Assembly (NCBI GenBank): GCA_964016885.1
Contig: OZ024740.1
Location: forward strand, 280,984,001-281,048,000
DNA: 64,000 nt
DNA from: Eledone cirrhosa
Taxonomy: Eukaryota
Reading direction: 5' to 3'
Shown: piece after piece, positions 16,159 through 56,416 of the stretch
Numbering within the stretch: position 1 is the stretch's first letter
Layout of the letters: every line of letters begins with the position of its first letter
The notes under the pieces: generated by a model
The model's database searches: none
What the model saw: only the letters and a program-made list of their open reading frames with translations
What the model was told of the DNA's origin: nothing
Made by a program: the position numbers and the translations under genes

Positions 16159-16624
16159 TAATACATGGTTTGAACAGAACTTTGATTCATGTTATTTCTA
16201 TATATATATATATATATATATATATATATACCTACATACAAATGCACACACACTCACATGCACACACACACACACACATACATACACACATATATAATAA
16301 TAATAATAATAATAATAATAATAATAATAATAATAATAATAATAATAATAATAATAATAATGATTTCTTTATTAACCACAAGGGTTTACATAAAGTAGAC
16401 ATTAAGGACAGTGCAGGACAATGCAGGACGGTACAAATGGGCATTTCTGCGTGTAAAAAAAACAAAAATAGAGGATGTAACAAAAATAACAATGAAAATA
16501 ACAATGAAAAATTCCCCAATAGGGGGGAGACTTCGGAGGGACATTTGTGGAGAAAGCCCAGTAAAAAGCCACAATGACCCTGACCACCAAGGCAAGTGCC
16601 CTCTCCCAGTTTTCCACCTTTAGT

Positions 16625-19600
16625 TTACAGATATATACTCAGAGTCGGCCCATTCACTCGGGCCATTCTTGCTTCTCTCACCCATCTTTCAACAAAATGC
16701 TGGGAAGAGAGCACTTCCTTCTCTACTCTGATTTTCCTTTTCAAATGAAATTTGAAAAAGTCAATCAGAGCATCACCGAAGAGGTAAGTGCTCGTCTTCA
16801 GCCCTTTCAAACGTGTCCACCATGCTATCTCTTTCGCCATGGCCACCAGACAGATAAAAACTGCCTGCCCTTCCCGGCTAAAGGAGGAGGGCGGGGCAAT
16901 CCTCACGATAGACTCAGATGATAGCTGGATCCGTCCTAAACGCGACAGCAGGTGTTCGACATAAACCCACAAGTCAGCAATTTTCGGACACTGGACGAGT
17001 GCGTGCAGGACGGTTTCGTCGCCCTGCGCGCATCTCGGACATGCCCGGCTGACGGCACCTCCATGCCTGTAGAGTTTATCCCGAACTGGCAAGGCTCCTC
17101 GGTAGCACTGCCAGGCCAGAGATTTCTGGAAGTTGTCCATAGGCCCTGGCCCGAAAGTTCTTCCGAAGAGATTGGCTAGTTGATTTTCGTCGACGCCTAG
17201 AGTTTCCCCAAGTACGTCGTCGCTCTTCCCCTCCACTAATCCTCTATAGAACGCCGAGGTGGAGTTTCCACCGATCACATTGCCCGATTGGTCGAGGGCT
17301 GTGAGCGCCTGAAGACATTCCAGTCTCCAGGCGCTCCCTCTCGGTCTTCGCTTGACCCAGGACTGCAGCTCCGTCAAGGAAACGAGCTGGGGAAAAACGC
17401 GTCTAGCAAACGGCGACCACACCTGATCACCGTCGAGGAAGAGGTGGAGATGTCGTAGCCTGAGCGCGTGCCTGCGCATCATCAGCCACGGCATGCCCAG
17501 CCCTCCACGTAGCGGGTGTTGACAACAGATGGACCGCCTGACCATCGGAGCACGTCCCTTCCACAAAAAGCGAAAGAGCAAACGCTCCAGCGCAGTCAGG
17601 CGAGGCTTAGGACAAGGTACGACGGTTAGGCGGTAGCAGATGACAGACGCGATGTACGCGTTAGCCACCTCCGCTCGACCTTTCAGGGATAGCTTCCTCT
17701 CCGCCCATTTCTGGGTGAGAGAAGCCACCCTGCTCGTCACCTCGTCCCAGTTTTTGTCCGTCTGGAGGTCCGGACCGAACCAGACCCCTAGCAATTTAAC
17801 CGGTCCGTCCGTCCAGCGCCCGACGACGCTGTTGGACGGCATGGACCTGCCTCTCCAGGTGCCGAGCTGCAGGCCCACTGACTTTTCCTGGTTGATCATT
17901 GCTCCTGTCACCGCTTCGTATTCTCTTAGTGTAGTGCCGATCGCCTCGATGTGTTTGGCGTTCGACACCACTACGGTGACATCGTCCGCATATGCTGACA
18001 CGGATCTTCCGCATCCTAGTTCGCGCGGGACTCCCCTCAACGTCTCCAGTTTGTGCAGTAATGGCTCGAGAGTCAATACGTACAAGAGGGACGAGAGGGG
18101 ACATCCTTGGCGGACCGAGCGCATGATGTTGAACGGTTCCGACAGGTGACCGTTCACTCTCACCACAGAGCAGATGTCGCTGTGCATGGCAGCGATCCAG
18201 CCTCTGAAGACGGGCCCAAAGCCAGCCGCCCTCAGGACTGCCGCTAGGTAACGATGGTCGACCCTATCGAAAGCTTTCGACTGATCTAAATTGATCAAGG
18301 ACCCACCCGTGCCAGGTTCCCTAGCTACCCTCTCTACGATGTATCGCATGAGGTGGAGGTTGTCGTGGATGGATCTGTCGGGAATGGCGCATGTCTGCGC
18401 CTCTCCCACCAGACCACCAACGACAAGCGCCAACCTCTTTGCTAGCACCTTGGCCAAAATCTTAAACTCTGTGTTTAGCAGAGTTATGGGCCGGAAATTG
18501 TCTATGTTATCCCCCTTGTTCGGATCCTTTCTCAGCAGTGCCACCGCTCCTCGGCTCACAGAACTGGGAATTCTCCCGTTCTGTTGCCAGTTGCAGTAGA
18601 CGTCCGCCAAGAGGCCTCCGAACAAGTCTGGCATCTGTACGTAAAGTTCATAGGGCAGACCATCCAAACCAGGCGATTTACCCCTTGTGCAGCCAGTCAT
18701 TGCCTCCCGTACTTCAGCGGCTGTTATCGGCTTTTCGCAACACTTCGCCTCAGTGGCCGAGAGCCGCGGCAGTCCGTCGAGGTAGACACTAAAGTCCATC
18801 CCTCTACCCGGCCCCCCGCTGCCCCCGAACAGCTGAGCGAAGTGTCGCTGAAAAGCTTCACACATTTGCCCGGGATCGAGTAGCATGCGCCCGTCGTGGT
18901 CCACCAAAGACCGGATCGTGGCTTTGTTGCCATGACGCGCCTCCGCCACTCGGGCCCATTGAACGGCTTTCGTCCCCTCGTGTCTGAGAGCACGCACCCT
19001 AGCTCTGACAACGCAGCCTTCGTGCTTTGCATTGAAGAATTGGTCAAGGGCCAATTTCGCCGCAAGCACGTCGGTCGCAATGCCTTTGCTAAGCGCCTCG
19101 TCTAATTTTCTAACTAGTTCTCCCTCTGCTCTATTTTTCTCTATTGCTAAAGCCTTACTAAACCTAATCGATTCTATTCTAATCGCTCTTTTCAGAGCAA
19201 ACCACCACTTGTTGTTGACGATGGCCCCCGTCAACGCCCGCTTAACTAGTTCGCTAATCCGGTCTCTGTAGGCCTTGCGCGCTGGTAAGGACGCGTTTAG
19301 CTTCCAGTAGCCGGGTCCTCGTCTATGAAGCCTATCTAAGTCAAGCACACAGATCACGAATTTGTGGTCCGTGTAGCTGACTATCTTGAATTGTGGACAG
19401 CCTATGCTAGACCTATCTATTTCCCTACAAAATACTCTATCTAGATATGATCTGGATGACCCTATGCGGTTTCTCCAAGTCCACATTGGCACATTCGGGA
19501 AATCCAATCGGTACCTGTCAGACAGTTCAAAACGCCTGAGCAGGTTGGTGAGGCTCTTGCACCCTCCACCCCTATCCGCTAATCCCACACAGTCCCAGCG

Positions 19601-55200: not shown

Positions 55201-55705
55201 TAGCCTGGCAGTGTTACCGGGGGCTCTGCCCGTTCGAGAAAAGCTCTACAGACACGGGCGCCCAGGCAGGGATCCCGCGAAAAAGATCTGTCCCAGATGC
55301 GTGCGCGACGAGGAAACCGTTGCGCATGCACTGGTACACTGCCCGGGCGTTGCCGATCTGTGGGGCTACGTCGAACGACTGCTGTCGCGTGTGGCGCCGA
55401 TTCGATTAACCGCCGAGTCTGTGGTGAACATCAAGCCGCCTCCTCCCTTCAGAAATGAAGCAGAGGCGGTCTTTCTGTGCGTAATAGCCATGATGAAAGA
55501 GGTTGTGTGGTGGACGCGCCTGAAAGGTCTGAGGTCGGGTGACTTTCTCTCCGGCCATCACCTGGTTTACTTCTTCCGATACCACTTCGGAAGAAGAATC
55601 AGGATGGAGAGAGAAGTGCTTGGTCCCAGACAGTTTTATGAAAGGTGGGTGAAAGAAGCGAGAATGGCCCGTGTAAATGGGCCTTCTCTCTACATTGTTC
55701 TGTAG
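52269..55705 (+). pseudogene. LINE ORF2 (APE-RT) with ATA at the expected start and a 1-bp frameshift near 55222
   Basis: LNARGL, GDWN, SDH, RQGCPLS, YADD, CPRC..ETVAHALVHC; colinear with copy A ORF2. Confidence 0.92.
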
Positions 55706-56416
55706 GTGAAGAAGTGAAGAGGAAAGGGGGAGCGCCTCCTCTCTGGGCTTCCCCCGCGAAAAGAGTTGCACACTTTTCGGGGGTATGTGCAATCCCCAAC
55801 ACGCCCCCTCCCTTTTGAGGACTTTTTATTGTTATATTATTATTGTTATTCCTTTTTTCTTTACTCGATTTATGTAAACTCCCCCACTGTGTAAATGTCC
55901 CCTTCTTTTGTGCCCTCGTGGCAAATAAATAGAAATTTATCTATGGATGTGTGTATGTATGCATATGTGAGTGTGTGTATAGGTACATACTAAATAAATT
56001 GATATGTAACCGTACGGGAACACTCCACATTAACGTACAATTACCAATCACATACATACTATAATTTTAGAATATTCTTCCCTTTAACATTTACAAGCCA
56101 GACTGAATCTATTTAATTGGAATGTCTTCAATGTTAAATATATTACCGAAGCCCATTGTTGTACGAAATATGACTTTTAAGGAATCAAGTTTCATGATCT
56201 AAACTACCTTTCAGATTTTCTATATAACACACACACACACTCACACACATACACACACACACACATACGCACTCGCACACACACATACACAAACAGATAC
56301 GCACCCTCGCGCACACGCACACACACACACACATGCACACACACACACAGATACACACCCGCGCGCACACGCACACACACACATACACACACACACACAT
56401 ACATATATATATATAT

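Follow-up and report, generated by a model that had tools for sequence, protein, structure and literature searches.

Elements of the L1 clade are usually thought to need no 3' tag, and it was against this background that a hairpin with a CUNGU loop had been noted at the 3' ends of Tx1-type long interspersed elements (LINEs) and of a short interspersed element (SINE) in 64,000 nucleotides (nt) of the octopod Eledone cirrhosa (contig OZ024740.1, positions 280,984,001 to 281,048,000). This whole stretch is called the window below, and all window counts refer to it. The closest described systems require this view to be qualified, as stringent L1-clade elements are already known in maize and sorghum, where the LINE1-1_ZM lineage and its partners ZmSINE2/3 have a conserved 3' hairpin with compensatory stem changes (PMC3472496); in Chlamydomonas, L1-1_CR and SINEX-3_CR share a tail (PMC3747384). 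In the L2 clade (UnaL2/UnaSINE, ZfL2-1, ZfL2-2), ORF2p reads a short 3' stem-loop whose loop is specific and whose stem can be exchanged, its binding region lying between the endonuclease and the reverse transcriptase (RT) (PMC4176376), and the SINE of such pairs has the LINE tail (PMC3747384). Crocodilian SINEU, which forms tandem insertions, was assigned to Tx1-Mar by shared target preference, and the fish Tx1 families Kibi and Koshi are specific for the microsatellites (TC)n and (TTC)n (both in PMC4494074, the latter as cited there). For the abundant octopus SINE classes tRNA-Deu and tRNA-Core, the available portions of two accounts name no partner LINE (PMC8967140, PMC13282606).

The window elements resemble the L2-clade pairs in their short 3' stem-loop, specific loop, exchangeable stem and SINE with an apparent LINE tail; reading by ORF2p, known for the L2 clade, is putative here. 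They differ in having an L1/Tx1-type LINE, a CUNGU loop, a shared part of only about 25-40 nt and a genomic target microsatellite as end repeat. With the plant and algal L1 pairs they have in common an L1-type hairpin, compensatory stems and a SINE sharing the 3' end; those pairs have the loop UCU and the flank CGAG, and the algal one ends in poly(A), whereas the window elements form part of an animal branch that targets microsatellites and shows no poly(A) at insertions. The likeness to SINEU and Tx1-Mar lies in a SINE-Tx1 pairing through a shared target and in tandem SINE insertions, although SINEU has small nuclear RNA (snRNA) heads, poly(A) tails and no LINE similar to the 3' half of SINEU-1, whereas the octopod SINE shares a 3' hairpin and its spacing with a LINE. 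The targets (ATT)n and (ATCT)n differ from those of Kibi and Koshi, and the window SINE is like the tRNA-Deu and tRNA-Core SINEs in abundance. Stem-loops shared by SINE and LINE have thus been described before, as have stringent L1s of plants and a SINE mobilised by Tx1, and the Tx1/SINE shared 3' hairpin is apparently new, a prior database note being possible; in a search of partly available literature, with most subscription papers, Repbase and Dfam outside it, neither a conserved 3' hairpin in Tx1 nor an octopus SINE with a Tx1 tail came to light.

The CUNGU hairpin is conserved at the 3' ends of one L1/Tx1 branch, and we consider it reasonably probable that it is the signal bound by ORF2p and was captured by a SINE that an ATT-targeting member of the branch mobilised in trans. 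This would name a likely engine for one abundant octopod SINE family and would extend the Tx1-type targets to (ATT)n and (ATCT)n. An intact element together with natural loop and stem variants makes an animal L1/Tx1 hairpin directly testable, and the branch that carries it can be compared with the solved human L1 ORF2p structures.

Five L1/Tx1-type LINE copies lie in the window: A, which is intact; B, a decayed copy of A; and E, C and D. Their positions, with those of their hairpins, are as follows.

16362..22386, minus strand: LINE A, full-length, L1/Tx1-type, (ATT)n at both flanks
20079-22265, minus strand: frame of the open ORF1 of LINE A, with a CCHC knuckle
16625-20110, minus strand: open ORF2 of LINE A, with APE endonuclease, RT and zf-RVT
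16374-16386, minus strand: AACC-CTTGT-GGTT, the hairpin of A, with AATAAA after it; 15 nt separate its closing G from (ATT)n
29237..35138, minus strand: LINE B, full-length family A copy, decayed, (ATT)n on either side
29249-29261, minus strand: hairpin of B
35359..36326, minus strand: LINE E, 5'-truncated, ATTATTATT on both sides
35372-35382, minus strand: hairpin of E, GCC-CTTGT-GGC
48519..50160, plus strand: LINE D, 5'-truncated inside the RT, between (ATCT)n arrays at 48373-48518 and 50162-50234
50136-50148, plus strand: hairpin of D, TGCC-CTAGT-GGCA
50235..55935, plus strand: LINE C, full-length, preceded by (ATCT)n
55911-55923, plus strand: hairpin of C, TGCC-CTCGT-GGCA

These elements belong to the L1/Tx1 group by an ORF2 with APE, RT and zinc domains (Exo_endo_phos, RVT_1 and zf-RVT in Pfam) that among solved structures is closest to human L1 ORF2p (E 5e-114, versus 9e-36 for R2), and by a separate ORF1 with a zinc knuckle (CFRCGSKTHLRAFC in A, CYLCMERGHVKANC in C; a Pfam search of ORF1 gave no match). 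They also show target-site preference, a trait of the Tx1 clade as distinct from L1 proper. A and B are 97% and 93% identical and A and E 74%; no alignment was found between A/E and C/D in their 3' untranslated regions (UTRs). A check of the window sequence located every hairpin so noted, at each listed element end and at its coordinates, with four Watson-Crick stem pairs in A, B, C, D and the SINE copy at 35k, three in E and the SINE copies at 24k, 29k and 37k, and the loop variants CTTGT, CTCGT and CTAGT. AGAAA stands downstream of all of them, LINE and SINE alike, as had been claimed; the spacer, described merely as A-rich, in fact contains AATAAA in 5/5 LINE ends and lacks it in the SINE. 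Local folding gives the closing pair a probability of 0.74-0.92 in 5/5 LINE ends. Twelve CCTNGTG hairpins with at least three pairs occur in the window (nine at element 3' ends, two in the A/B 5' UTR, one elsewhere) against 1.5 per window expected as the mean of 60 dinucleotide shuffles, the motif having been picked for this test after inspection of the data; the chance of one falling in a given 40-nt end is about 5e-4.

Six SINE copies bear the tail, and one further, core-only copy (63037-63166, minus strand) is an older SINE with the same core and without the hairpin tail. In the list, TSD denotes a target-site duplication.

8793..8982, plus strand: SINE 8k, full-length, solo; damaged hairpin with loop CTTGA; 19-bp TSD with 2 mismatches and an ATT start
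24515..24545, minus strand: SINE 24k, 3' end only; GGC-CTTGT-GCC, then (ATT)n; 5' flank not ATT
29126..29224, minus strand: SINE 29k, 5'-truncated, between (ATT)4 and (ATT)3
35157..35333, minus strand: SINE 35k, near full-length, between the ATT runs of E and B; B box GTTCAAATC
37502..37688, minus strand: SINE 37k, full-length, solo; one ATT after the end, no TSD found
39066..39167, plus strand: SINE 39k, 5'-truncated, solo; stem broken at pair 2, exact TSD ATTATTATA
24528-24538, 29139-29149, 35170-35180 and 37515-37525, all minus strand: SINE hairpins

The B box GTTCAAATC is present in 3/4 SINE heads, while a strict A-box pattern matched 0/4, and neither ARAGORN nor Rfam gave a match in the window. 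Among same-species reads, 183,740 of 12.5 million records match a 421-bp SINE-bearing stretch, with depth mostly on the SINE. Many core-bearing read copies diverge near 35191-35201, i.e., belong to other subfamilies. The SINE may resemble Deu/Nin, as originally labelled; no Deu/Nin-DC reference for comparison was found by motif search or in the searchable supplements of PMC5804259 and PMC4758252.

Between the closing G of the hairpin and the first ATT lie 15 nt, both in the LINEs A, B and E and in 6/6 SINE tails. All six SINE tails are then followed by ATT and none (0/6) lies in (ATCT)n, although (ATCT)n arrays are present in the window. The repeat had been taken for an (ATT)n tail shared by SINE and LINEs, and ATT does follow A, B, E and the SINE, but not as a plain tail: it is at least partly target, because ATT runs stand on both sides of A, B and even the truncated E, because TSDs start with the post-SINE ATT in 2/3 solo SINEs (the third shows none), and because truncated D begins directly after one (ATCT)n array and ends before another, C and D being flanked by (ATCT)n instead. 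We therefore rejected (ATT)n as a pure template tail, as it lies inside TSDs and flanks truncated copies on both sides. E, a SINE, B and another SINE are interleaved in the same orientation within a single ATT tract. In a survey of joints in reads and contigs of the same species plus two other species labels, SINE-on-SINE head-to-tail junctions fell at an ATT run in 8/15 of the joints listed (449 further joints exist), and E-like ends were joined to ATT runs elsewhere. The SINE thus shares target and orientation with the ATT-targeting Tx1-type LINEs, the orientation being common relative to the ATT repeat and not, as the earlier claim might be read, by window strand, since two SINE copies lie on the plus strand. 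After AATAAA, no poly(A) is found at the window LINE ends.

Distant relatives offer an independent test. A profile of A, C and 11 relatives, searched against prokaryote genome assemblies, returned 49 loci, of which the 40 with full ORF2 (L082-L120, L126) all come from one assembly, G001, titled an Arenicella metagenome-assembled genome; its small contigs are tandem arrays of Tx1-type elements and are therefore evidently eukaryote DNA, likely host contamination. The ORF2 of these loci is 41-44% identical to that of A, and 40/40 carry GGC-CTNGT-GCC 644-729 nt after ORF2, followed by a second hairpin and AATAAA; two other G001 loci checked, L121 and L122, lack the hairpin. Its pattern matches 68 times in G001 versus 0 for the control, with the same three loop variants as in the window. 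Distant relatives are otherwise largely unalignable in their 3' UTRs: for L082 and L083 (48.6% ORF2 identity) the best match between 740-nt 3' UTRs is 38 nt around the hairpin. No A-run of at least 6 follows AATAAA in 32/32 distinct G001 junctions, one of which enters ORF2-internal sequence 17 nt past AATAAA. The second hairpin, just before AATAAA and directly after the CUNGU hairpin in L083-L120, varies in sequence among subfamilies and keeps 6-8 pairs. The arrays themselves (L082-L120, L123, L126) consist of mostly intact elements, head to tail and about 6.5 kb apart, with neither poly(A) nor microsatellite between units, and may possibly reflect self-targeting.

Compensatory stems had also been claimed, and a covariation check on a 20-row alignment of 3' ends bears this out, with two-sided changes in 3/4 stem pairs: the closing C-G never varies, whereas at pair 2 the window LINEs have C-G and the SINE and G001 have G-C; A-U and G-C both occur at pair 3, A-U and U-A at pair 4. 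Across the four pairs 89.5% of cells are paired versus 75.0 +/- 3.3 when shuffled, a comparison that overstates covariation because about three changes at lineage level lie behind it and the same sequences had supplied the structure. In a FastTree tree of 119 RT rows, which included 9 of the 40 G001 loci and excluded 19 short rows, the window families fall together with both lineages of G001 in one branch of 27 rows (Shimodaira-Hasegawa support 100). The hairpin is present in 12/12 branch rows that have 3' DNA, the other 15 being protein only, and in 0/23 outgroup loci with at least 150 nt after ORF2, some of which may stop before their true end. In this tree, built without curated Tx1 or L1 references, P0034 (named TX1 149 kDa protein), fish P0020 and the branch lie together in a set whose internal order the tree does not resolve. 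Since distant relatives keep the hairpin, outgroup loci lack it and the UTRs are otherwise unalignable, we conclude from these sequences that it is a real, selected feature of one L1/Tx1-type branch. One outgroup Tx1-like locus, L031, ends in an A-run and then further sequence that looks like the beginning of U1 snRNA. No copy of the SINE turned up in assemblies G001-G004, one match at E 0.86 aside. The SINE core pattern had no match in viral or prokaryote-genome contigs, the SINE/LINE tail pattern had one chance match in viral contigs, inside an unrelated coding stretch, and no Tx1 relatives were found in viral contigs.

Which member of the branch serves the SINE is a separate matter. Mobilisation by the AAT-targeting Tx1, as originally proposed, fits at the level of the branch (motif, 15-nt spacing, ATT target, orientation), but A, B and E are not demonstrably the donor, because the SINE stem differs from theirs at pair 2 and the best tail score goes to the ATCT-targeting family D. 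In the G001 families the stem reads GGC/GCC, as it does in the SINE and not in A, B or E. Loose-end read consensuses of 30 letters at 35187 and 35191 (agreement 0.5-0.63) indicate a longer SINE form with a sense-strand C-rich tract shortly before the stem, at a position where the G001 families carry CCCCTCCCC. Because of this stem and tract, the tail was probably donated not by A, B or E but by a family of the branch that lies outside the sample and has a GGC/GCC stem, and the mobiliser was likely an ATT-targeting member of the same branch.

One could envision the following sequence of events. LINE RNA would extend beyond hairpin and AAUAAA to take in flanking (AUU)n; ORF2p, which by analogy with the L2-clade work likely recognises the hairpin, would bind the CUNGU loop by sequence and the short stem by shape only; the endonuclease would nick the (AAT)n strand, and the nicked end would pair with AUU repeats 15 nt past the hairpin, so that copying would start at a fixed point, in a single orientation and without poly(A). 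The SINE, a likely RNA polymerase III transcript, would have taken about the last 25-40 nt of a branch LINE, losing AAUAAA and keeping hairpin and spacing. The common origin of the SINE tail and the branch 3' end is more certain than the ORF2p binding step. A bolder version, which we offer tentatively and hold to be somewhat doubtful, is that an old animal L1/Tx1 branch is fully stringent, with one CUNGU loop selecting the RNA and setting the RT start without poly(A) across targets and hosts, that a major share of octopod SINE expansion rode on it, and that the second copy, in the 5' UTR, flags the opposite RNA end.

A number of observations weigh against capture and mobilisation in trans through the hairpin. 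The stem has just 3-5 bp, the covariation is confined to the few lineage-level changes noted above, and the G001 rows, which come from one host, are near-copies that fall into two lineages. The SINE differs from A, B and E at pair 2 and lacks AATAAA; with 14 ends compared, its tail scores best against D in 4/4 copies tested and weakly against A (p 0.03-0.84); for one outgroup end p came to 0.02-0.04. The tail alignment spans about 20-25 nt, and no sampled LINE combines the exact SINE stem with an ATT target. Two of the six SINE tails, both in plus strand copies, carry broken hairpins, the other four being intact. Local folding favours the hairpin in just 2/6 SINE copies, and in folds of the whole SINE its closing pair has a probability of 0.08, 0.02, 0 and 0 in four full-length or long copies, 3/4 minimum-energy folds pairing the hairpin bases with GCCGAGG/GCCGCGG after the B box. 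The SINE copies, 85-95% alike mutually though few, look on average older than A/B. Finally, a similar hairpin also sits in the 5' UTR of A and B:

22260..22290 (approximate bounds), minus strand: second CTCGT-loop hairpin, in the A 5' UTR, with a counterpart in B near 35025 (minus strand)

There the long CTCGT-loop hairpin adjoins a C-TTCG-G hairpin, and the UTR is predicted to be highly structured.

Some of these points would suit a different function, in which the hairpin serves RNA stability or the processing of the 3' end, through a host protein beside AAUAAA, and the SINE took a Tx1 tail and was primed only by pairing between AUU and target. AATAAA follows the hairpin in 5/5 window LINE ends and in the G001 families, priming does not start at the 5' UTR copy, and whole-SINE folds hide the hairpin. 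Moreover, fourteen motif matches fetched from G001 contig 1, G002 and G003 gave no tblastn match to the A ORF2 or the RTE-like ORF, and 4/14 have 4-bp stems with AATAAA, so the motif with AATAAA also occurs outside Tx1, perhaps now and then by chance; in L132, L133 and L134 (G003) a repeat carries GACGC-CTTGT-GCGT, then AATAAA, with no Tx1 ORF2 match nearby. However, the SINE keeps the hairpin while lacking AATAAA, the 15-nt spacing to the insertion point is fixed in the SINE and in A, B and E, and no poly(A) is copied at the window ends or at any of the 32 G001 junctions. We regard a processing or stability role as unlikely.

Alternatively, the SINE could be mobilised by another AAT/TAA-associated LINE (Dong/R4 or RTE), the hairpin being a relic or common to that LINE. 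Dong targets (TAA)n, and two LINE copies in the window that we take to be RTE-like abut SINE copies:

22405..24514, plus strand: RTE-like LINE, 5'-truncated, (AAT)n tail, opposite orientation
25480..29125 (5' bound approximate), plus strand: RTE-like LINE, long copy, (AAT)n tail abutting the tract that holds E, SINE, B, SINE

Dong-R4 and RTE are both active in Octopus vulgaris (PMC13282606). Against the RTE-like 3' end, however, the SINE tails score 9-10, below the shuffled mean of 12-13; AAT follows that element on its sense strand, ATT, the opposite strand, follows the SINE; and the SINE motif and spacing match Tx1-type ends. The RTE-like LINE was rejected as tail donor, and the fit to another LINE clade that would have spoken against the original proposal was not seen at the RTE-like end. 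Mobilisation by such a LINE seems to us improbable. More improbable still is that all families of the branch, ATT- and ATCT-targeting, serve the SINE promiscuously through the common loop with no single partner: the same loop does occur in families with differing targets (A/B/E, C/D, the G001 arrays), and D gives the best tail score, but the SINE tails adjoin ATT exclusively despite the (ATCT)n arrays at hand. Chance resemblance of the SINE and LINE motifs is barely credible, and for the LINE hairpins chance is largely excluded, for although the motif is 7 nt with a 3-4 bp stem, picked post hoc, with a background of 1.2-1.8e-5 per base, exact spacing, AGAAA and target are shared beyond it and it recurs independently at the 3' ends of distant relatives.

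Several other features of the window deserve mention. Positions 22405-24545 and 27026-29156 are 98% identical over the 3' part and tail of the RTE-like element plus the final 48 bp of a SINE; we rejected 22405-24545 as a proven 3' transduction, since independent insertions or duplication fit equally well. Between the SINE end and the RTE-like copy, 24545-25480 (plus strand) is a low-complexity A/C-rich segment with no match to ORF1 of A or C. The window is rich in microsatellites, and inverted-repeat elements, resembling miniature inverted-repeat transposable elements or foldback elements and unrelated to the hairpin, lie at 5004-6324, 13743-14558, 14695-15028, 36687-36949 and 47743-47897. A G-protein-coupled receptor exon at 62059-62790 (minus strand) is vasotocin-receptor-like by its best named matches (Octopus sinensis 80%, Argonauta 75%).

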